A stretch of DNA of 64,000 bases, from assembly GCA_963716865.1 (NCBI GenBank), contig CAVQUF010000002.1:86316-150315 (forward strand). Direction: 5' to 3'. This document shows positions 10,398 through 40,779 of this stretch, one piece after another (the stretch's first letter is position 1; each line of letters starts with the position of its first letter). Origin of the DNA: an uncultured Actinomycetes bacterium (GTDB lineage Bacteria; Actinomycetota; Thermoleophilia; Gaiellales; Gaiellaceae). Position numbers and translations under genes: made by a program. Below the pieces are notes generated by a model that worked only from the letters and a program-made list of their open reading frames with translations, had not been told where the DNA came from and ran no database searches.

Positions 10398-11108
10398 CTA
10401 GTCCCCGTGCCCGAAGAGCCCCCGCACCGATTGGGCGAAGACCCTGGCCGCGGTCGCGGTCAGCGTGCGCAGGTATAGCGGCACGGAGCGGTCGGCGATC
10501 CACTCGAGATCGTGGGCCAGCTTCTCGGCCATCGAGGTCTCGTAGCCGCGCCTCACCTGGGCGAACCCGGTCAGACCCGGGCGCACGACGAGACGCTGCC
10601 AGTAGGCCGGCAGCTCCTCCGCGAGCTGCTCGAAGAAACGGGGCCGGATCGGCCGCGGCCCGACGAAGCTCATGTCGCCTCTGAGGACGTTCCAGAGCTG
10701 GGGAAGCTCGTCGAGCTGCGTCGCGCGGAGACGGCGGCCGAGCCGCGTGGTCTCGGCGCGTGTCTTCTCGACGAGCTCTTCGCCGAGAAAGGAGCCGAGG
10801 CGCTCCTCGGCGCCGGGCTCGAGCGTGCGGAACTTCAGCATCTGGAAGATGCGCCCGTCCTTCCCGACCCGGCGGCCGCGGTAGAAGAGGGGCCTGCCGC
10901 TCGTCAGGAGGAGCGCGGCACCGATCACGAGCAGCAGCGGGACCGCGAGCAGCAGGAAGAGCCCGGAGAAGGCGACGTCGAGCAGCCGAAGCTCCAGATC
11001 GACGCGGCGCTTCGGCGAGCCGCTTCCGAGCCCCGCGAAGCGCTCGATGAAGGAATCGCTCGGTCCCGGCTGCGGCGAGGTTTCCGAGCCCGGCTGGGAG
11101 CTGGCCAC
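10398..11108 (-). CDS. Initiating sugar-phosphate transferase (bacterial sugar transferase family, PglC/WbaP C-terminal type), copy 1
   Basis: PLFYRGRRVGKDGRIFQMLKFRTL and DELPQLWNVLRGDMSFVGPRP. Confidence 0.9.
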   Translation of the reverse strand: MASSQPGSETSPQPGPSDSFIERFAGLGSGSPKRRVDLELRLLDVAFSGLFLLLAVPLLLVIGAALLLTSGRPLFYRGRRVGKDGRIFQMLKFRTLEPGAEERLGSFLGEELVEKTRAETTRLGRRLRATQLDELPQLWNVLRGDMSFVGPRPIRPRFFEQLAEELPAYWQRLVVRPGLTGFAQVRRGYETSMAEKLAHDLEWIADRSVPLYLRTLTATAARVFAQSVRGLFGHGD

Positions 11109-12167: not shown

Positions 12168-13126
12168 TCGTCCGCTGGGGGCTCGAGGAGCTCCCCGGCC
12201 TGCTCGCGGAAGCCGGGATCGAGCGCCCGTTCCTGATCGCGAGCGACCGCTGGGCGCGCCTCGACCTTCCCGCGGCCGGAAGATGGAACGAGGTTCCGTC
12301 CCACCGGATCGACGACGCGGCCGAGGCGAGCGACGGCTGTGACGGCCTCCTCGTGGTCGGCGGCGGCAGCGCGATCGACCTGACGAAGGCGATCTCGGCC
12401 GCGACCGGCCTCCCGTTCGTTTCGGTGCCGACCACGTACTCGGGCGCCGAGTGGACGACGTCGTTCGGGATCCGCGACCCGGGCCGGCTCATGAGGGGCC
12501 ACGGAAGCGGCGCCCACCCGGCCGGGATCGTCTACGAACCGAAGCTGACCCTCGACCTGCCACGGGGCGTGAGCGGCGGAACGGCAATGAACGCGCTCGC
12601 CCACTGCGCGGAGGCCCTCTACGTCGAGGGCCGCAACCCCGAGGGCGACGAGCATGCGATCGAGGGCGCGAGGCTGATCGGCGAGTCGCTCCCGTCCGTG
12701 CTCGAGGACGGCCACGACCTCGAGGCCCGAACGACGCTCCTGCGTGGGGCGATGCACGCGGGGGCCGCCTTCGGCTCGGCCGGTCTCGGGCTCGCGCATG
12801 CGATGGCGCAGGCGATCGGCGGCCGCTACGGGATCGCGCACGGAGCTGCGAACGCCCTCTGCCTGCCGCCGGCGCTGCGGTTCAACGAGTCGGTCGCCCG
12901 CGAGGAGATCGCGCGCTTCGCCGAGGCTCTCGGCACGGCCGATGCAGCGGCGCGCTGCGAGGAGCTCTCCCGCCTCTCGGGCTTCGAGCGCCTGCGCGAC
13001 CTCGGCGTCCCGGAGGACGAGCTCGACGAGGTGGCCGAGGCGGCCGCCGCCCGTCCGGGCGCGCTCGTCAACCCGCGCCGTGCGAGCCCGGCCGAGATCG
13101 CCGAGCTCCTGCGCAGCATCTGGTAG
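12164..13126 (+). CDS. Iron-containing alcohol dehydrogenase family protein (maleylacetate-reductase-like)
   Basis: VVGGGSAIDLTKAI and the histidine-rich C-terminal half (NALAHCAE, GLAHAMAQ). GTGA overlap with the LysR stop. Confidence 0.8.
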   Translation: MIVRWGLEELPGLLAEAGIERPFLIASDRWARLDLPAAGRWNEVPSHRIDDAAEASDGCDGLLVVGGGSAIDLTKAISAATGLPFVSVPTTYSGAEWTTSFGIRDPGRLMRGHGSGAHPAGIVYEPKLTLDLPRGVSGGTAMNALAHCAEALYVEGRNPEGDEHAIEGARLIGESLPSVLEDGHDLEARTTLLRGAMHAGAAFGSAGLGLAHAMAQAIGGRYGIAHGAANALCLPPALRFNESVAREEIARFAEALGTADAAARCEELSRLSGFERLRDLGVPEDELDEVAEAAAARPGALVNPRRASPAEIAELLRSIW

Positions 13127-33466: not shown

Positions 33467-34330
33467 TCAGGCCGCCGGCGCGGATCGCCACGACTCGAGC
33501 AGCATGCGCAGGCCGTCCTCGAGGCCGACCTCGGCCCGCCAGCCGAGGGCGCGCAGGCGCTCGACGCTGATCGTCGGCGCGACCCGACCGGGCGGCGGCT
33601 CGACCTCGTCGATCAGCTCCTGCGGCGCTCCGGCCAGGTCGCAGGCGATGCGCGCGGCGTCCGTCATCGCGATCGGGTCGGCGTCGGAGCCGACGTTGAA
33701 CACGCCTTCCGCATCGGCCTCGAGCACGAGGCGGATCGCCCGCGCGGCGTCGCCGATCCAGCACCACGTGCGCATCTCTCCACGGTAGGCCGGGATTCGC
33801 TCGCGGCATGCGGCCTGCCAGAGCATGCTCGGGAGCGCGCCCTTCCCCTGTCCCGGCTCGAGCCCGGGCCCGTACGGGTTCGCGAGGCGGACGACGACGA
33901 GCCCGTCCGGCGCGTAGAGCTCGGCCGTCTGCTCTCCCCAGCGCTTCGTCAACCCGTAGAGGCTCTCCGGGGCCGGGGGCGTCTCCTCGTCGGCGAACGC
34001 GGCGACCCCGTAGACGTCCGCGGTCGAGACGTAGGCGATCCTGGCGCCGTGGGCGGCGCACGCGCGCGCGACCATCAGCGTCCCGAGCACGTTCGAGCGC
34101 AGGGCCAGGAGCGGCTCCTCGTCACAGCGCACCACCCCGATCCGGGCCGCGGCGTGCACGACCACGTCGGGCTTCGCCTCGGCCACCGCGCGCTCCGCGA
34201 CTCCGTCCTCGGCGAGGTCGCCGCTGCGACGCTCGAGCGCATGGACCTCGTAAGCTCGATCGCCGTGACGGAGCTCCTCCACGACGGCCCGCCCGACGAA
34301 GCCCGAGGCTCCCGTGACCAGCACTCTCAT
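33467..34330 (-). CDS. NAD-dependent epimerase/dehydratase (SDR)
   Basis: MRVLVTGASGFVGRAVV and SLYGLTKRW (YxxxK). This is the C-terminal 287 aa of track ORF 33467..34870. Confidence 0.85.
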   Translation of the reverse strand: MRVLVTGASGFVGRAVVEELRHGDRAYEVHALERRSGDLAEDGVAERAVAEAKPDVVVHAAARIGVVRCDEEPLLALRSNVLGTLMVARACAAHGARIAYVSTADVYGVAAFADEETPPAPESLYGLTKRWGEQTAELYAPDGLVVVRLANPYGPGLEPGQGKGALPSMLWQAACRERIPAYRGEMRTWCWIGDAARAIRLVLEADAEGVFNVGSDADPIAMTDAARIACDLAGAPQELIDEVEPPPGRVAPTISVERLRALGWRAEVGLEDGLRMLLESWRSAPAA

Positions 34331-34843
34331 CGCGGGCGAGTCTACTGGCGCTCCTGTCTGCTCCTGGCGGCGGCGCTGCTGCTCGCAGGCTGCCACGGCT
34401 CGAAACGGGCGAGCCCGGAGCCGAAGCCCGGCCCACGGTTGTCCTTCCGGGCGCTCGACGCGCAACACCAGCGGCTCGTGGCGAGCTACGAGCCGGTCAG
34501 CCGCGCGCTCACCGCCTACGAGCTCGCGTACCGCGACTGGCGCAACGGCCGCCTCGGCACCCCGGCGCTGGTCGCGCGCATGACCTCCTTCCGGGCCGTG
34601 GTCGCCAGCGCGCTCGGGCGCCTGCGGCGAGACCCGGCAACCGGGGCGACCGCGGACGGGAAGCGCCTGCTCGTGGCCGCGCTCGCGGCCCGTCGCCGCG
34701 CGCTCCTGGCCGCCCCCGGAAGCGAGCCGTACCGGGAGGAGTGGAACCGCTCGGTGGTGGACGCGCGGAGAGGGTTGACCCTGCTCCAGAACATCCGCGA
34801 CCGGGCCAGGCTGATCCCGCTCCCGGAGGACTCGGTCAGCTAG
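34265..34843 (+). CDS. Putative lipoprotein, unknown function (start uncertain)
   Basis: Lipobox LLLAGC within track ORF 33458..34843, followed by a helical, Arg/Ala-rich body. The nearest in-frame canonical start is GTG 34265. Confidence 0.4.
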   Translation: MTELLHDGPPDEARGSRDQHSHRGRVYWRSCLLLAAALLLAGCHGSKRASPEPKPGPRLSFRALDAQHQRLVASYEPVSRALTAYELAYRDWRNGRLGTPALVARMTSFRAVVASALGRLRRDPATGATADGKRLLVAALAARRRALLAAPGSEPYREEWNRSVVDARRGLTLLQNIRDRARLIPLPEDSVS

Positions 34844-34845
34844 AG

Positions 34846-34864
34846 CCCGACGGTCGTCGTCGGG
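34846..34864 (+). terminator. Stem-loop CCCGACG-GTCGT-CGTCGGG after the lipoprotein gene
   Basis: Perfect 7-bp GC stem starting 3 nt after the stop; no U tract (I-shaped type). Confidence 0.4.
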
Positions 34865-34887
34865 TGACAAGCACGCTGGCCCAGCCC
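34861..34887 (+). repeat. Repeat family D, copy 0 (short variant, left edge of lower-GC insert)
   Basis: CGGGTGACAAGCACGCTGGCCCAGCCC. Confidence 0.6.
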
Positions 34888-34921
34888 AGTGCTACGAGTG
34901 CTGGCGGGCTAGGCTGAGTTG

Positions 34922-35490
34922 GTGGTGGGGTCGGGGTACACGATTAAGGCTCTCGATGAGTCGAGCTGGGATGCGTTCGCCAGGCTGGTCGAGGCGAATA
35001 ACGGCGTCTTCGGGGTTGTTGGTGCATGGGCTTTCATCCGGATGACAGCCGCGACCCGGCGTTGAACCGGGAACGCAAGCTCGCACGGGTGCGGGCAGGC
35101 AGGGCACATGCGGCCCTTGTGTTCGATCGCGAGGACTGTGTGGGTTGGTGCCAGTTCGGGGCGCCGGACGAGGTGCCGAAGATCAAGAACCGCGCTGCCT
35201 ACGAGAAGAGCCTCACGACCTTGCCGGACTGGCGGATCGCCTGCAACTTCGTCGGCAAGGGGCACCGGCGCAAGGGCGTCGCCACGGCGGCGCTCGCCGG
35301 GGCGCTCGATCTGATCGCCTCTCTCGGAGGCGGCAAGGTAGAGGGCTATCCCGAGGGCGCGGGTTCGGTTCCTGCCGGCTTCCTCTTCAACGGCGCCCTG
35401 TCGACCTACGAAAAGCTGGGATTCGTCCGCGACCGCCGGATCGGCAAGCACCGCTGGGTCGTCACCAAAGTCGTCGAGCCAACGTCGTAG
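34922..35490 (+). pseudogene. GNAT-family N-acetyltransferase interrupted by a 1-nt frameshift in a G run (35012..35015)
   Basis: YTIKALDESSWDAFARLVEANNGVFG is in one frame. (G)CWCMGFHPDDSRD...KGHRRKGVATAAL (track 35026..35490) is in the -1 frame. Span is 569 nt = 3n-1. Confidence 0.7.
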
Positions 35491-35508
35491 GCGACCTCGC
35501 GACGCTCA

Positions 35509-35537
35509 GGGGTCATTCCGGAACACTGGCCCAATCC
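35509..35537 (+). repeat. Repeat family D, copy 1
   Basis: GGGGTCATTCCGGAACACTGGCCCAATCC, 19 nt after the GNAT stop. Confidence 0.75.
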
Positions 35538-35701
35538 ACGCTCGCCACCCTCGACACATCAAGAGGTCCGGCGCATCAGTGGGGCGACCTCAGCCGAGGG
35601 TCCCCGTCCCGGCAGCACCCTGTCGTCCAGATCAGGCGAGGCGCTTGACAGAGGTTACGATCGACGATTCGCAACGACCCGCGCTACACGGAGGTGGTCG
35701 G

Positions 35702-36340
35702 ATGAACGACAACCCGAAGTGGCAGGTCGCGCGCCTCGACAAGATCGAGCGGCGCGACAGAAGTATCCCGGTGCGCGAGCACCTCGGGATCCACGCATTC
35801 GGAATCAACGCCTACACGCCCGGCGAGGACGGCACGCTGATCAACGAGCACGACGAGTCCGGGTCGGGCCAGGAGGAGCTGTACATCGTGCTCGACGGGA
35901 AGGCGACCTTCGAGGTCGACGGCGAGACGGTCGACGCGCCCGCAGGGACATTCGTGTTCGTCCCGCCGGAATCACGGCGGAAGGCGACCGGGGACGGAAC
36001 CGTCCTCGCCCTCGGCGCGACACCCGGCGAGGCGTACCAGGCGCTCGACTGGGGTGAGGCGTGGCCGCTCCACAGCGAGTCGATGACCGCCTACGGCGAG
36101 CAGCGCTACGCTGACGCGCTCGACGCGGTCCGCCGTGGCCTCGAACGCTTCCCGGATCAGCCGGGCCTCAATTACAACTACGCGTGCTTCGCAACGCTCG
36201 CGGGCGAGACCGGCGACGAGACGTTCGCCCACCTCCGACGGTCCGTCGAGCTGTTCCCGCCGTTCCGCGAGCAGGCGCGAGCGGACGATGACCTCGCCGC
36301 CGTACGCGACGACCCGCGGTTCGAGGAGGCTCTTCGCTGA
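35702..36340 (+). CDS. Cupin-domain protein with helical (TPR-like) C-terminal extension
   Basis: EELYIVLDGKATFEVDGETVDAPAGTFVFVPP is cupin_2-like. ATG 35702 (track ORF 35579). Confidence 0.7.
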   Translation: MNDNPKWQVARLDKIERRDRSIPVREHLGIHAFGINAYTPGEDGTLINEHDESGSGQEELYIVLDGKATFEVDGETVDAPAGTFVFVPPESRRKATGDGTVLALGATPGEAYQALDWGEAWPLHSESMTAYGEQRYADALDAVRRGLERFPDQPGLNYNYACFATLAGETGDETFAHLRRSVELFPPFREQARADDDLAAVRDDPRFEEALR

Positions 36341-36345
36341 GCGCG

Positions 36346-36368
36346 CAGCTCTCGACCTCGAAGAGCTG
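36346..36368 (+). terminator. Stem-loop CAGCTCT-CGACCTCGA-AGAGCTG after the cupin gene
   Basis: Read directly; starts 6 nt after the stop, no U tract. Confidence 0.4.
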
Positions 36369-36402
36369 AGACTAAGGTCCGCCCACTTGCGGGATGTCCG
36401 TC

Positions 36403-36427
36403 GGGTGACATTCCCGAGCACCGCCCC
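36403..36427 (+). repeat. Repeat family D, copy 2
   Basis: GGGTGACATTCCCGAGCACCGCCCC. Confidence 0.7.
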
Positions 36428-36664
36428 ATGCAGATGTATTGACGTTCGGCTGAGTACCGATACTTGAGCGCGGTGAACCTCATTCCCCTCGCGCTGACCT
36501 TCAACGAGGGAGGCGGTCGCACCTACGCAACGGTCGTGGGCGATCGTCTCGACGCGCATCGCGTCGGTGCAGTGAGCCTCGTGATTGGGTTGGCTGGGAT
36601 CGCCGCCGCAATCGCACTTGCGCGGCGCGAGCGCCTGCGCTCCTGAACGTTCTCAACCGCGCTC

Positions 36665-36694
36665 GGGTTACATCCCCGAACACTGGTCCAAGCC
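36665..36694 (+). repeat. Repeat family D, copy 3
   Basis: GGGTTACATCCCCGAACACTGGTCCAAGCC, just before the 3' end of the minus-strand hydrolase gene. Confidence 0.75.
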
Positions 36695-36702
36695 TTTAGT
36701 GC

Positions 36703-37593
36703 CTATGCCGCGGAGGCGAAGAAGTCGATAAGCAGTTGGTTGACGCGTTCAGCCTCGTCGTGATGGACCCAGTGCGACGCGTCGGGCAGGCGCTCGACGC
36801 GGTCGAGGTTGGGTACGTCGTCGCGGTCGGGCTCGGCGAGTTCGGAGCCGAGGTAGGAATCGCGCTCCCCCCAGATCACCAGTGTCGGCGCCGAAATCGG
36901 ACGAAGCTTCGCTGCGGCTTCCTTCTGGGACTGTCGTACCGAGGCGCGGTAGTAGTTGATCATCCCCGACGCTGCTCCTGGTTGCGACCACGCCTCGACG
37001 TAGCGTTCGATTTCCTGCGGCGTGTAAGGCGGGTTCGCGTCCTGCAGGAAGTGTCGGAAGAAGTGCCAGTCTCTGGCGTGCACGACCTCCTCGGGCAGTC
37101 CCGGTGTCGCAAAGAAGAAGAAGTACCAGGACTTCCGGAGCTGGCTCGGGTGGTGCAGTCCCTCCTGGAGCCGCCGCGGATGGGCCGCGTTGAGGATGGC
37201 GAGTCGGTCGACCACCTCGGGGTGGTTCATCGCGGTGGTCCAGGCGATGCTTCCGCCCCAGTCGTGACCGACCAACAGCGCGGACTCGGCACCGAGTTCT
37301 CCGATGAGGCCGCGGATGTCGGCGGCGAGCAGGTCGACGGCGTAGTCCTCGAAGTCCTCTGGCTTCGATGACAGGTTGTAGCCACGCGTATCGGGCGCGA
37401 CGACCCGAAAACCCGCCGCCGCGAGCGGCTCGATCTGTAGCCGCCAACCGAACCAGAACTCCGGGAAGCCGTGCAGCAGAACGATCAGCGGCCCGTCACC
37501 GGCCTCGACGTAATGCAAGCTCTGATCGCCGACCTCGGCATAACCCTCCCGTAGCTCGATCCCGACGTCAGGGAGCAGGCTAGTGGTGGTCAT
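36703..37593 (-). CDS. Alpha/beta hydrolase (epoxide hydrolase / haloalkane dehalogenase-like)
   Basis: LLHGFPEFWFGWR and VGHDWGGSIAW. Confidence 0.9.
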   Translation of the reverse strand: MTTTSLLPDVGIELREGYAEVGDQSLHYVEAGDGPLIVLLHGFPEFWFGWRLQIEPLAAAGFRVVAPDTRGYNLSSKPEDFEDYAVDLLAADIRGLIGELGAESALLVGHDWGGSIAWTTAMNHPEVVDRLAILNAAHPRRLQEGLHHPSQLRKSWYFFFFATPGLPEEVVHARDWHFFRHFLQDANPPYTPQEIERYVEAWSQPGAASGMINYYRASVRQSQKEAAAKLRPISAPTLVIWGERDSYLGSELAEPDRDDVPNLDRVERLPDASHWVHHDEAERVNQLLIDFFASAA

Positions 37594-37700
37594 GAGGACC
37601 TCCGTGGGTAGGTGGATTCGGTTGCGAGACTACGCCTGCCGGTTTGCATACGCAACAACCGTCAGCAGAGCGCCGCGAGACGCACTCGCCCAAGGCGGTC

Positions 37701-37726
37701 TGGTGACATTCCCGAACACTGGCGCA
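37701..37726 (+). repeat. Repeat family D, copy 4
   Basis: TGGTGACATTCCCGAACACTGGCGCA. Confidence 0.75.
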
Positions 37727-37769
37727 GAGGAGGGTTCCGCGCCTGCTGCAGCAGTTGGGTTCACGGGTC

Positions 37770-37798
37770 TTGACAAGGTTGTGAGTGAGTGCTAACTT
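37770..37798 (+). promoter_or_regulatory. Sigma-70-like promoter TTGACA-N17-TAACTT with embedded TetR-type operator; likely leaderless tetR transcript
   Basis: Hexamers read directly. The -10 ends 6 nt before ATG 37805. The spacer GTGAGTGAGTGCTAACTTCC recurs at 38376..38395. Confidence 0.5.
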
Positions 37799-37804
37799 CC
37801 GTCA

Positions 37805-38353
37805 ATGGTCGCCACGGAACGGAAGACGGCAGAGCAGCGGCGCGAGGAGATTCTCGTCGTCGCGATGGAGGAGTTCGGCGAGCACGGGCTGCACGGGACG
37901 TCGACGGACACGATCGCCCGCAGGGCCGGCGTCTCGCAGCCGTATCTCTTCCGGCTCTTCGGCACCAAGAAGGCGCTCTACCTCGAGAGCGTCCGCCGCT
38001 GCTTTCGGGAGACGCTCGAGCTCTTCCAGGAGGCCTCGGTCGGCAAGACCGGGGAGGAGTCGCTGAAGTCGATCGGCACCGCGTACCGCGGGCTGCTCGA
38101 GAACCGGACGCGGCTGCGCGCCCAGATGCAGGCGTACGCCGACTGCGACGACCCCGACGTGCGCGAGGTCGTTCGCGAGGGCTTCGGTGCGCTCGTCGAC
38201 TACGTCGAGCGCGTCTCCGGCGCCGATGGGAAGCGCGTCCGCGACTTCTTCGCCTTCGGGATGCTGCTGAACGTCTTTGCGTCGATGGATCTGCTCGACC
38301 ATCCGGGACCGTGGGCCAAGCGGCTCCTGGACTCGTGCCTCGAGGAGGAGTAA
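37805..38353 (+). CDS. TetR/AcrR-family transcriptional regulator
   Basis: HTH TSTDTIARRAGVSQPYLFRLFGTK. Confidence 0.9.
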   Translation: MVATERKTAEQRREEILVVAMEEFGEHGLHGTSTDTIARRAGVSQPYLFRLFGTKKALYLESVRRCFRETLELFQEASVGKTGEESLKSIGTAYRGLLENRTRLRAQMQAYADCDDPDVREVVREGFGALVDYVERVSGADGKRVRDFFAFGMLLNVFASMDLLDHPGPWAKRLLDSCLEEE

Positions 38354-38375
38354 GGCGCATTTTTTTCGCGCTGAA

Positions 38376-38395
38376 GTAAGTGAGTGGTAACTACC
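38376..38395 (+). promoter_or_regulatory. Second copy of the operator-like motif (GTAAGTGAGTGGTAACTACC) directly upstream of the MFS gene
   Basis: 17/20 identical to 37781..37800; imperfect dyad AGTnAGnnCTnACT. Confidence 0.45.
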
Positions 38396-38396
38396 A

Positions 38397-39827
38397 ATGA
38401 AGGAGGCGAAGATGAACACCCGCAGCACCACGATCTGGACATTCGCGATTACCTCGGTGGCGCTCTTCATGACGACGCTCGACAACCTCGTCGTGACGAC
38501 GGCGCTGCCGGTCATCCGCGTGCAGCTCCACGCGGGCCTCAGCGGGCTCGAGTGGACGGTGAACGCCTACACGCTCACCTTCGCGGTGCTGCTGATCACG
38601 GGCGCCGCACTCGGCGACCGCTTCGGCCGGCGCAAGATGTTCGTCGCCGGCCTCGGAATCTTCACGTTGGCCTCGGCCGCGGCCGCGCTCGCGCCCTCGA
38701 TCGAGGTGCTGATCGCTGCCCGCGCGCTGCAGGGCTTCGGCGGGGCGATCGTGCTGCCGCTGACACTCACCATCCTGAGCGCGGCATTCCCGGCCGAGCG
38801 CCGCGGGCTCGTGCTCGGCGCGTGGGGCGGGATCAGCGGCCTCGCGGTCGCGCTCGGCCCGCTCGTCGGCGGCGCCGTCGTCGAGGGCATCTCGTGGCAG
38901 TGGATCTTCTGGCTCAACGTCCCGATCGGGCTCGTCCTGATCCCGCTCGCGGCGCTGCGGCTGAAGGAGAGCCGCGGCCCGAACAGCTCGCTCGACCTCC
39001 CGGGCGTCGTCCTGGCGAGCGCCGGCCTCTTCGGGATCGTGTGGGGCCTCGTGCGCGGGAACCAGGTCGGCTGGACGAGCCCCGAGATCGTGCTCGCGCT
39101 CTCCGCGGGAGCGATGGTGCTCGGCCTGTTCGTGCTCTGGGAGACCCGCGCCAAGGCGCCGATGCTGCCGCTGCGGTTCTTCCGCAACCGGACGTTCTCG
39201 GCGGCCAACGCAGCCTCGCTGCTGATGTTCTTCGGGATGTTCGGGTCGATCTTCCTCCTGGCGCAGTTCTTCCAGACGGTGCAGGGCTACTCGCCGCTCC
39301 AGGCCGGGCTGCGGATCCTGCCGTGGACGGCGATGCCGATCCTCGTCGCGCCGCTCGCCGGCGCGCTCTCCGACCGGATCGGAGGCCGGCCGCTGCTGGT
39401 GGTCGGGCTCGCGCTCCAGGCCGTGGGGCTCGCCTGGATCGCGCTCGTCTCGACGCCGACGACCCCGTACTCGGAGCTCGTCGTGCCGTTCGTGCTCTCC
39501 GGGATCGGGATGGCGATGTACTTCGCGCCGGTCGCGAACGTCGTCCTCTCCTCCGTGCGGCCCGAGGAGGAGGGCCAGGCATCGGGCGCCAACAACGCGA
39601 TCCGCGAGCTCGGCGGCGTGTTCGGCGTGGCGGTGCTCGCCTCGGTCTTCGCCCACTACGGCGGGTACGGAACGGGCACGACCTTCGTAGACGGCCTGAC
39701 GCCGGCGATCTACGTCGGCGCCGCGATCGTCGCGCTGGGCTCGGTCATCGCCCTCGGCGTCTCACGCGGCCGCCGTCCGCAGGTCGAGCCCCAGCAGGAG
39801 TACGAGCCCCTGGCGGAGGCTGCGTAG
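38397..39827 (+). CDS. MFS transporter, DHA2 (14-TM, EmrB/QacA-like) drug:proton antiporter
   Basis: LGDRFGRRKMF motif and about 14 hydrophobic segments. The alternative ATG 38412 is preceded by GAAGGAGG. Confidence 0.9.
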   Translation: MKEAKMNTRSTTIWTFAITSVALFMTTLDNLVVTTALPVIRVQLHAGLSGLEWTVNAYTLTFAVLLITGAALGDRFGRRKMFVAGLGIFTLASAAAALAPSIEVLIAARALQGFGGAIVLPLTLTILSAAFPAERRGLVLGAWGGISGLAVALGPLVGGAVVEGISWQWIFWLNVPIGLVLIPLAALRLKESRGPNSSLDLPGVVLASAGLFGIVWGLVRGNQVGWTSPEIVLALSAGAMVLGLFVLWETRAKAPMLPLRFFRNRTFSAANAASLLMFFGMFGSIFLLAQFFQTVQGYSPLQAGLRILPWTAMPILVAPLAGALSDRIGGRPLLVVGLALQAVGLAWIALVSTPTTPYSELVVPFVLSGIGMAMYFAPVANVVLSSVRPEEEGQASGANNAIRELGGVFGVAVLASVFAHYGGYGTGTTFVDGLTPAIYVGAAIVALGSVIALGVSRGRRPQVEPQQEYEPLAEAA

Positions 39828-39844
39828 AGGAGGAAAGCCGTCTT

Positions 39845-40711
39845 CTAGCCCGACTGCAGGAGGGCGTAGCCCTCCCGCAGGAACGGCGTTCGGTCGACGA
39901 GGGCGCGGATCTCCTCCGAGGGGTGCGCGCCCTCCTCGGTCACCACGAGGTCGATCAGCTCCGGCGGGGTGAGGTCGAGCTCGGCGGCGTTCAGTCCGGG
40001 TGCCTTGGAGGCCTCGATCGGGGCGAGCTTGATGATCTCGCAGGCGACGATCGTCGGCACGCTCTCGGCGGCGGCCGCCTCGGCGAGCTCTCGCGTCCCG
40101 GCCTTGTTGCAGAGCGTGCCGCAGCGGAACACGGTGTCGGCGCCGACGAGCAGGAGCGAGGCCCACCGCAGCTCGGCCGGCGCGTCGTCGTCCTCGACGA
40201 GCTCGACGTCTAGCCCTTCGGCGCGGAGGTCGGCGGCGAACGCGCGCCCCTCGTCCTGAGGCGACGACGCGGTGCAGATCACGCGCTCGGGCGGGGTGTG
40301 CACCAGCGCCTCGCGAACGGTCGCCGAGGCGGAGTGCGTCAGCACCACAGCCTCCGTGAGGCGGTCCTGGAGCTGGATGGCGATCGAGGCCGCGGCGCGG
40401 CGGCGGCCCTCGATCAGCCCCTCGGCCTCCTCGCCGACTAGCTGACGCAGCTGATCCGGCTCGAGCTGAACGTGCCGCTGGGCCGCGGCGAGCAGCCGGC
40501 CGACTGCGCCGGCGACCGCGCCGACGCCCGGGCGGCTTCCCGCGAGCTCGCGTCCGGCGGCGACGAGATTCGCAAGCAGCTCCTCGCCGGTGGCGGCGTC
40601 CGCCTCCGCAACGTCGACCAGCGCCTCGACCGCCCGGCGCGCCATCCAGCTCGCGCCGTGGCGGCGGTCGAGCCGAAGCTCCTCGACCCGCTCCCCCAGG
40701 ATCGTGGCCAC
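39845..40711 (-). CDS. eIF-2B alpha/beta/delta-like family protein (sugar-phosphate isomerase-like)
   Basis: VLTHSASATV, LVGADTVFRCGTLCNKAGT, VPTIVACEIIKL. GTG 40711 is preferred; the track extension to 40831 is Cys/Arg-rich and contains repeat D5. Confidence 0.7.
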   Translation of the reverse strand: MATILGERVEELRLDRRHGASWMARRAVEALVDVAEADAATGEELLANLVAAGRELAGSRPGVGAVAGAVGRLLAAAQRHVQLEPDQLRQLVGEEAEGLIEGRRRAAASIAIQLQDRLTEAVVLTHSASATVREALVHTPPERVICTASSPQDEGRAFAADLRAEGLDVELVEDDDAPAELRWASLLLVGADTVFRCGTLCNKAGTRELAEAAAAESVPTIVACEIIKLAPIEASKAPGLNAAELDLTPPELIDLVVTEEGAHPSEEIRALVDRTPFLREGYALLQSG

Positions 40712-40758
40712 GGCGACATTGTCGCAGATGGCGCGTGAGCGGCACCGTCGCGTGCGAT

Positions 40759-40779
40759 CGTGACAATGCACGGTGCCCC
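40759..40779 (+). repeat. Repeat family D, copy 5 (short variant, right edge of lower-GC insert; weakest copy)
   Basis: CGTGACAATGCACGGTGCCCC. About 17/20 plus one indel versus copy 0 (GTGACAAGCACGCTGGCCC). Confidence 0.45.

Follow-up and report, generated by a model that had tools for sequence, protein, structure and literature searches.

How a conserved glycan locus came to hold a short row of unrelated accessory genes, separated by copies of one repeat, is the question raised by a 64,000-nucleotide stretch from an uncultured bacterium (assembly GCA_963716865.1, contig CAVQUF010000002.1, positions 86,316 to 150,315; the whole stretch is hereafter referred to as the window, and its positions are numbered from its first letter). 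The locus belongs to a Gaiellaceae genome (class Thermoleophilia), i.e., to a soil actinobacterium, and the row of genes lies between a lipoprotein-like gene on the left and a TetR-MFS gene pair on the right. A first reading of the DNA (the original prediction) described here a lower-GC insert of 5.9 kb (34861-40779), delimited by six copies of a motif and recalling an integron cassette array. The analysis reported below suggests, with a probability of roughly 0.7, that the region 34846-37769 is a four-cassette mobile array made by an integron-like site-specific system, with a simple dyad site and a recombinase acting in trans.

The search of the window with the pattern GGTGACATTCCCGAACACTGG, allowing up to three mismatches, disclosed exactly four matches, all on the + strand and all intergenic, starting at 35509, 36404, 36666 and 37702, versus 0.00 matches expected by chance (100 shuffles); the 42-nt site windows used hereafter start at 35504, 36399, 36661 and 37697, respectively. 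The same four copies were recovered as a 35-nt family by a repeat finder; they scored 49.2, 27.9, 29.6 and 45.1 bits with a position-weight matrix, by which no other copy scored in the window, and their nhmmer E-values ranged from 4e-11 to 3e-5. Once aligned with 80 nt of flanking DNA, they prove to be conserved over only about 33 nt, with unrelated sequences on either side. An Rfam search of the window returned no family at gathering score. The four full-length, same-strand, intergenic copies of the original prediction are thus confirmed by shuffling and by nhmmer, and the predicted six reduce to these four plus a degenerate fifth at 34861 (site 0). Site 0 reads GTCGGGTGACA[6 nt missing]AGCACGCTGGCCCAG, also GTCGGGTGACA–AGCAC-GCTGGCCCA|G, and is identical to site 2 on either side of its 6-nt gap; it was missed by the ungapped matrix (-11 bits), and its crossover-proximal half was found by nhmmer at 34873-34893 (E=0.066). 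It is the exact left junction of the GNAT cassette, i.e., the left end of the homology with a related cassette in locus L147, and is a decayed site forming the left junction of cassette 1; the predicted left edge copy is real in this respect, but degenerate because of its 6-nt deletion. As to the predicted sixth copy, at the right edge (40759), it scored -20 bits with the matrix, had no nhmmer match, and lies in DNA collinear with locus L163 (85-87% identity; L163 aligns to window 37770-40768), a relative without the array of the window; this copy is therefore spurious and not a member of the family. The insert is composed of the following features:

34846-37769, + strand: whole insert (cassette array); homology with L163 is lost at 34845 and regained at 37770.
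34861-34893, + strand: site 0, degenerate, GGGTGACA^AGCACGCTGGCCCA|G; crossover after 34883.
34884-35533, + strand: cassette 1, GNAT acetyltransferase; open reading frame (ORF) 34921-35490; Pfam Acetyltransf_1 (35026-35490); GC 0.661.
35504-35545, + strand: site 1, 49.2 bits; crossover after 35533.
35534-36428, + strand: cassette 2, cupin + TPR-like protein; ORF 35702-36340; Pfam Cupin_2; GC 0.682.
36399-36440, + strand: site 2, 27.9 bits; crossover after 36428.
36429-36690, + strand: cassette 3, short unit; doubtful 60-aa ORF 36464-36646.
36661-36702, + strand: site 3, 29.6 bits; crossover after 36690.
36691-37726, - strand: cassette 4, alpha/beta hydrolase; ORF 36703-37593; Pfam Abhydrolase_1, 6.8e-32; GC 0.647.
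37697-37738, + strand: site 4, 45.1 bits; crossover after 37726.
37727-37769, + strand: right-hand remnant, i.e., the right half of the last site and 30 nt, still part of the insert; not present in the empty loci L164, L165 and L167.

The limits of the insert were obtained by comparison with loci L162-L167, i.e., the contigs carrying homologues of the lipoprotein-like gene. L162 is 99.2% identical over window 24477-44975 and harbors the same array without window 36356-36504; this deletion of 149 nt (corresponding to L162 11878-11880) takes away site 2 together with the beginning of the 60-aa ORF, suggesting that the latter is not a functional gene. L163 (85% identical) is homologous up to 34845 and again from 37770 (CTTGACAAGG…) onwards, and the DNA in between contains DUF998, cupin and ADH genes, with no site scoring by the matrix; this ADH is 79% identical to a gene located inside the L123 array. 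In the more distant L164, L165 and L167, the TetR promoter/operator follows the stop codon of the lipoprotein-like gene by at most 4 nt (the TetR start lying about 40 nt away in L164 and L165), with nothing between and with no site at these empty loci. L166, also a more distant relative, has neither TetR nor MFS. From the limits of homology in L163 and from the three empty loci it follows that the insert spans 34846-37769 (2.9 kb) and not 5.9 kb. The TetR, MFS and eIF-2B-like genes, which had been counted among the cargo, are syntenic in relatives and are ancestral, conserved neighbors. The empty site that the original prediction proposed to look for in relatives does exist in L164, L165 and L167, between the lipoprotein-like gene and TetR. 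On the same comparative grounds, this spot is a hotspot for variable content, and the first insertion in the window locus seems to have used no recognizable pre-existing site. The variable region of L163 opens right after the stop of the lipoprotein-like gene (10609-10625) with AGGCGAGAGG, which resembles a right half-site, and is bounded on the right (12770-12790) by the core-only look-alike CCTGGACA|GGCGACGAG; these may be minimal sites devoid of the left 20 nt and missed by the matrix. The lower GC content of the insert was verified, being 0.63-0.68 in the cassettes vs 0.74-0.77 in the flanking glycan genes, with the profile of the window dropping to 0.65-0.67 only within 35-38 kb.

The repeat is not a peculiarity of this locus. 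A scan of one genome per species with the pattern GKNWCATYCCSGAACACTGG yielded at least 120 blocks (per-genome copy numbers being lower bounds). Among the blocks listed, nearly all belong to Gaiellaceae, Thermoleophilia or Solirubrobacterales metagenome-assembled genomes (MAGs), many with two to four same-strand matches, and 4 of the 120 are chance pattern matches from unrelated phyla; at least 95 species-level assemblies harbor one or more matrix matches. The family consensus, based on 159 exact-pattern instances, is GCTCAGGGGWCATTCCSGAACACTGGCCCAGGCGAG(s)GTCCT, with high information over about 36 nt and tailing off thereafter. The 42-nt weight matrix retrieved at least 374 copies scoring 20 bits or more, up to 11 of them per 8 kb, separated by 94-3000 nt from one another; adjacent copies lie on the same strand in 255 of 258 cases and on opposite strands in the remaining 3. 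The site is thus conserved in sequence across bacterial families, and its copies form dispersed mini-arrays, many per genome, instead of one platform. Matches in plasmid and phage collections were only chance-level and partial, those in viral contigs (with a looser pattern) only single and chance-level, and no systematic association of the arrays with tRNA genes was found. Two 47-bit sites were also observed on a 4.3-kb contig binned outside Thermoleophilia (L156, JAVHVL010000586.1, labelled Pseudonocardiales); either this contig is mis-binned or the system extends beyond the class. Concerning the strand, arrays 130-300 kb apart on one contig share the same site orientation in 4/4 comparisons (L098, L154 and L108 on CAVUQB010000005.1; L072 and L113 on CAVWZB010000002.1; L084 and L117 on CAWEJU010000015.1), and the GC skew, read in the direction of the site, has a slight negative bias (74 of 116 loci, the other 42 going the other way; p=0.004), the window itself being opposite. 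The strand of the site may thus have a replichore polarity, and these weak hints leave a single-strand mechanism possible.

The crucial point is whether single units move, and by which kind of exchange. BLASTN between loci returned many segments, 80-99% identical, ending inside sites, and when the arrays were cut at site position 30, eight cassette families were found to recur in different arrays with different neighbors; as an example, families C5 and C3 are adjacent in L101, whereas C3 is alone in L043 and C5 lies beside C4 in L074. The shuffling of single cassettes between genomes is thus shown. The array under study provides a further instance: its GNAT unit (34871-35534) and L147 5248-5911, which belongs to another species-level MAG, share 94% identity, whereas the DNA beyond either end differs, and the junctions are …CGCGCA|CCCAGTGC and …CACTGGCCCAA|. 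Across 354 sites, the cross-locus pairs share homology only upstream in 30 cases, only downstream in 15 and on both sides in 1. In the upstream-only pairs, the variable positions 0, 1, 4, 7, 9, 16 and 21 match at 0.67-0.93 (random 0.39-0.64) and position 27 at 0.73 (random 0.56), with positions 30-58 at random level; in the downstream-only pairs, it is positions 30-58 that match, at 0.5-0.87 vs 0.27-0.51 expected at random. The breakpoint was the same in a previous set of 8 full-length pairs. This position-wise matching places the switch between site positions 27 and 30, …CTGGCC(CA)|GGCGAG…, and its sharpness at CCCA|GG implies a fixed crossover and, hence, a site-specific recombination.

The structure of the site agrees with the position of this breakpoint. 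The site is an element of about 40 nt, GCTCAGGGGWCATTCCSGAACACTGGCCCA|GGCGAG…, and the best dyad center of all those tested (from -10 to +70) is 28.5, i.e., at the mapped crossover, where 5.4 complementary pairs of 11-12 are found vs a background mean of 3.1-3.3 (standard deviation 0.53). The dyad core, GAACACTGGCC-CA-GGCGAGnGTCC, is imperfect, and its central CA is nearly invariant and non-palindromic; on its left, a second dyad-like element, TCAGGGGT-C-ATTCCGGA (left 17 nt), may be a putative accessory binding element. A hairpin is absent: the fold energy of six sub-regions of 250 sites, together with an upstream control, is not below that of shuffled sequences (mean z -0.27 to +0.17), and covariation within the site gave no Watson-Crick signal, the strongest one, between positions 9 and 16 (A…C vs T…G; mutual information 0.35), not being of this type. 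A hairpin or attC reading of the site was rejected on these two grounds and for the lack of GTTRRRY at the crossover. A promoter recognized by an extracytoplasmic function (ECF) sigma factor (GGAAC-N16-GTC) was also considered and rejected, since its "spacer" would be the most conserved part and the strand is kept whatever the gene orientation. Two site subtypes exist, …GGGTCATTCCGGAAC… and …GGTGACATTCCCGAAC…, which travel with their cassettes and occur together within single arrays, including that of the window; two donor lineages, or two specificities of the recombinase, may account for them.

As far as the cargo is concerned, most inter-site intervals contain one ORF of 90-300 aa, located within tens of nucleotides of the sites, and the median unit length is 631 bp (interquartile range 480-1035). 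Since the orientation of the longest ORF is unreliable in high-GC DNA, a codon-usage gene caller trained on the Pfam-supported genes of the window was used. In both orientation classes the larger gap lies at the 5' end of the ORF, which would suit cassettes equipped with expression signals of their own. The Pfam families found most often in 150 cassette ORFs are GNAT (9), Cupin_2 (8), SAM methyltransferases (6), Glyoxalase (5), PD40 (4) and YCII (4), accompanied by SDR, alpha/beta hydrolase, Peptidase_S51, Beta-lactamase, SnoaL, GFA and MFS. The 150 flanking genes closest to the arrays, when classified with Pfam, gave families like those of the cassettes, with no recombinase among the top ones; it is thus probable that many arrays go on with sites too decayed to score. 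In the window, Pfam corroborated the gene identities proposed for this segment. The frameshift of the GNAT gene was confirmed as the loss of 1 nt from a run of G (GGGGG to GGGG) near 35012, relative to the intact homologues of L162 and L147; the gene may be a true pseudogene, or the long-read assembly may contain a homopolymer error here. The cassette 2 protein has homologues in L059 and L128 (83-87% amino acid identity). The 60-aa ORF of cassette 3 has no Pfam match, a weak coding signal and no homologue among the fetched loci, and for the cassette 4 hydrolase, which lies on the strand opposite to the sites, an exact-protein database look-up returned no record.

On the basis of these data, the following mechanism can be proposed. 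The unit is one small accessory gene in either orientation, presumably with its own promoter. Each cassette ends with the conserved 30 nt …GCTCAGGGGWCATTCCSGAACACTGGCCCA and starts with GGCGAG(n)GTCCT…, so that two abutting cassettes rebuild the site of about 40 bp. Single cassettes would change places through conservative site-specific recombination at CCCA|GG, the dyad center, presumably through circular intermediates, whose head-to-tail junction would read …CACTGGCCCA-GGCGAG…, and the recombinase would be encoded away from the arrays and act in trans. The dyad-symmetric core, with a fixed crossover at its center, is what a simple site displays, and from this layout we infer a double-stranded core site of a serine or tyrosine recombinase. 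The nearly invariant, non-palindromic central CA is reminiscent of the sites of serine recombinases, but the site could also belong to a tyrosine recombinase, with CCCAGG as its 6-bp spacer. The res sites of serine resolvases and invertases share with the site described here a dyad core with an invariant non-palindromic central CA at the crossover and a one-sided second dyad-like element; however, res sites resolve cointegrates and do not delimit arrays of unrelated genes, and no resolvase is linked to the arrays. An assignment to the res-type class would be tentative. Another likeness is with the pdif modules of Acinetobacter plasmids (XerC/XerD) and with the integrative mobile elements exploiting Xer (IMEX) at dif, in which gene modules are bounded by short double-stranded core sites (28 bp in pdif), the recombinase is unlinked and acts in trans, and successive integrations give rise to tandem rows. 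Nevertheless, pdif sites alternate in orientation, whereas 255/258 of the pairs analysed here lie on the same strand, and these arrays occur at many chromosomal positions, not at the terminus or on plasmids, with no real match in the plasmid collections. A dif/Xer reading was rejected on sequence, no dif core (ATAA-N6-TTAT) being present, and on the position of the crossover.

The search for the recombinase covered the window and about 0.9 Mb of DNA around the sites of the 120 loci. No match to IntI1 or XerD (query sequences typed out by hand) was found by tblastn in the window, and none to resolvase, Hin, phiC31 integrase or the IS608/ISDra2 TnpA (likewise typed out) by tBLASTn in the 0.9 Mb. 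Tyrosine recombinases are present in 6 of the 120 loci, are phage-type (Phage_int_SAM_3 / Phage_int_M N-termini) and share 25-33% identity with one another. In one of these loci (L106, 2797-4150) a tRNA-Lys gene is immediately followed by a phage-type integrase 2 kb from the array; this is an ordinary tRNA-targeting integrative element, near the array by chance. An all-against-all BLAST clustering aimed at a recurrent array-side gene returned only cargo-type families, the largest of which occurs in 12/120 loci. The lack of a linked recombinase implies that the enzyme acts in trans, or that the system is now inactive in some lineages. The remark of the original prediction that neither an integrase nor canonical attC cores lie nearby was upheld by the tblastn search of the window and by the crossover sequence CCCA|GGCGAG.

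Different explanations of the arrays have to be weighed against the proposed one. Integrons are the textbook case of one-cassette-at-a-time gene capture; their attC sites, imperfect palindromes 57-141 nt long, fold in single-stranded form and carry the cores R'' (RYYYAAC) and R' (GTTRRRY), with the crossover at G|TT. GNAT, glyoxalase and cupin genes are typical of chromosomal integron cassettes, and no native integron is known from Actinomycetota (Thermoleophilia). The array of the window might be a true integron remnant, i.e., a cluster of attC sites lacking an integron-integrase (CALIN), having atypical attC sites that fold as single strands and an IntI-type integrase elsewhere in the genome. 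Its anatomy fits this idea rather well: rows of small, low-GC, mostly single-gene cassettes of suitable size and cargo, individually mobile between arrays and genomes, with sites on one strand, the bulk of the conserved site lying at the cassette's 3' end and the crossover near the right edge of the site, as in attC, to which the weak strand polarity on the contig scale (4/4 distant blocks; 74 vs 42 loci) can be added. CALINs without a nearby integrase are known, whereas the IntegronFinder 2.0 survey found no complete integron in Actinobacteria (PMC9024848), the phylum of this host (Actinomycetota), from which integrons are practically missing. On the other hand, the site is a simple dyad of about 40 bp whose sequence is kept across families, whereas in attC it is the structure that is kept; the site shows fold z values around zero, no Watson-Crick covariation and no R''/R' cores at CCCA|GGCGAG. 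Moreover, no intI adjoins an array, either in the 64-kb window or in the 120 loci, no attI or platform promoter (Pc) lies beside the arrays, the arrays are dispersed, and the ORFs are not co-oriented as expected from a Pc (95 vs 120 overall; 21 vs 47 among the most confident calls). A CALIN in the strict sense is therefore very unlikely. Since IntI, attC structure and co-oriented cassettes all fail, the system resembles a sedentary integron or CALIN in the way it works but falls outside the definition of integron; of the original idea, the repeat-delimited, site-specific and lineage-wide array stands, while strict membership among integrons or CALINs does not.

The cassettes might otherwise be non-autonomous, single-strand transposon-like units handled by an HUH nuclease (IS200/IS605, IS91 or Helitron type), which would nick after …CCCA and insert them beside an existing end, thus forming same-strand tandem rows. 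The single sharp breakpoint, with strong conservation only on its 5' side, the strict strand uniformity (255:3), the common orientation over hundreds of kb on one contig and the small GC-skew bias are all in keeping with this, and the transposase need not be linked to its units; but HUH enzymes normally recognize hairpins, and neither cassette end gave any hairpin signal, no Y1 or HUH gene was detected in the 0.9 Mb around the sites, and a breakpoint-centered dyad fits a double-stranded dimer site better, so that this explanation is regarded as unlikely. Slightly less credit can be given to a scenario without any dedicated recombinase, in which the 30-nt block is a portable homology patch, a regulatory element or a terminator, and swaps are RecA-dependent and follow DNA uptake. 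That block is roughly as long as homologous recombination minimally requires, the search around the sites gave no recombinase, and the sole strain-level difference, in L162, is an ordinary deletion; yet breakpoints are not scattered within the block, positions 4, 7, 9, 16 and 21 following the upstream cassette (0.77-0.93 vs random 0.43-0.64) and the switch being confined to positions 27-30, no terminator-like hairpin is present, and one strand is kept regardless of gene orientation. Least plausible of all, and hardly tenable, is a generic intergenic repeat, i.e., a repetitive extragenic palindrome (REP), a miniature inverted-repeat transposable element (MITE) or a regulatory box, with no role in mobility and a merely coincidental array in the window. 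It is true that the repeat is a short intergenic sequence of which each genome carries many copies; nevertheless, it is not palindromic and has neither terminal inverted repeats nor target duplications, it is clustered, it marks the exact limits of the DNA that differs between genomes, and it is conserved across bacterial families, unlike REPs. Hairpin propensity is lacking, no inverted-repeat family was reported and the units carry genes, which is at odds with REPs, bacterial interspersed mosaic elements (BIMEs) and MITEs; this explanation has largely been refuted already by the shuffling, breakpoint and locus data.

Some points weigh against the site-specific array proposed here. No recombinase was identified beside the arrays, and the empty loci of relatives carry no site at which the first insertion in the window could have taken place. 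The sole difference between the array of the window and that of the 99%-identical L162 is the 149-nt deletion, which is not site-specific, so that this pair of strains gives no sign of recent site-specific activity in the lineage. The orientation of the ORFs relative to the site strand is mixed (95 same and 120 opposite, i.e., 43% and 57%), unlike that of an expression platform, the breakpoint statistics comprise 45 pairs, and all the comparison genomes are MAGs, many of them long-read, with contigs ranging from hundreds of kb to over 1 Mb; chimeric assembly joins at the repeat are not possible, since its 40 nt are shorter than k=141.

The surroundings of the array complete the picture. The glycan locus (window 24000-46000; L162-L167) is maintained throughout Gaiellaceae and includes two paralogous ATP-grasp/epimerase modules; its genes encode Wzy_C, a Polysacc_synt flippase, epimerases, DMFA2_C, an SBP_bac_5 protein, ATP-grasp/LAL_C2 ligases, LPG_synthase_TM and glycosyltransferases. 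The genes closest to the array are:

33467-34330, - strand: epimerase (Pfam).
34340-34843: lipoprotein-like gene; no Pfam family; 309 homologues, all the named ones from Gaiellaceae.
Right-hand side: genes for TetR, MFS, an IF-2B-like protein and an ATP-grasp/LAL_C2 protein (Pfam).

A repeated box, GTGAGTGAGTGCTAACTT / AAGTGAGTGGTAACTAC, is located upstream of TetR (37770-37800) and again upstream of the MFS gene (38372-38393), and its first copy is conserved in L163, L164 and L167; the box probably serves as the TetR operator and has nothing to do with the cassette site.

It can be asked, finally, what the arrays represent in this class of bacteria. On a rather even balance, it appears somewhat more probable that Thermoleophilia, which are abundant in soil, possess a gene-capture system of their own, parallel to the integron, with a double-stranded dyad site of about 40 bp, a fixed crossover at CCCA|GG, cassettes that express themselves whichever way they face, mini-arrays scattered by the dozen over each chromosome and an unlinked, non-IntI recombinase; there is a substantial chance that it will prove a categorically separate system once the recombinase is known. 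A literature search on the motif string, on Gaiellales/Gaiellaceae cassettes or mobile elements, on integrons in Thermoleophilia and on integron-like systems in Actinomycetota retrieved no prior description (subscription journals being outside its coverage).

The cassette system explains small low-GC islands interrupting conserved loci, as in the glycan cluster analysed here, and its site represents a simple sequence handle for a large hidden pool of soil accessory genes, including acetyltransferases, cupins, glyoxalases, beta-lactamase-like enzymes and efflux pumps. It also points to a new site-specific recombinase with a compact site of about 40 bp, a possible tool. Gaiellales and Solirubrobacterales are among the commonest soil bacteria and are mostly uncultured; if the system of these two orders is an independent one, the capture of one cassette at a time would have evolved, or diversified, beyond IntI and attC.

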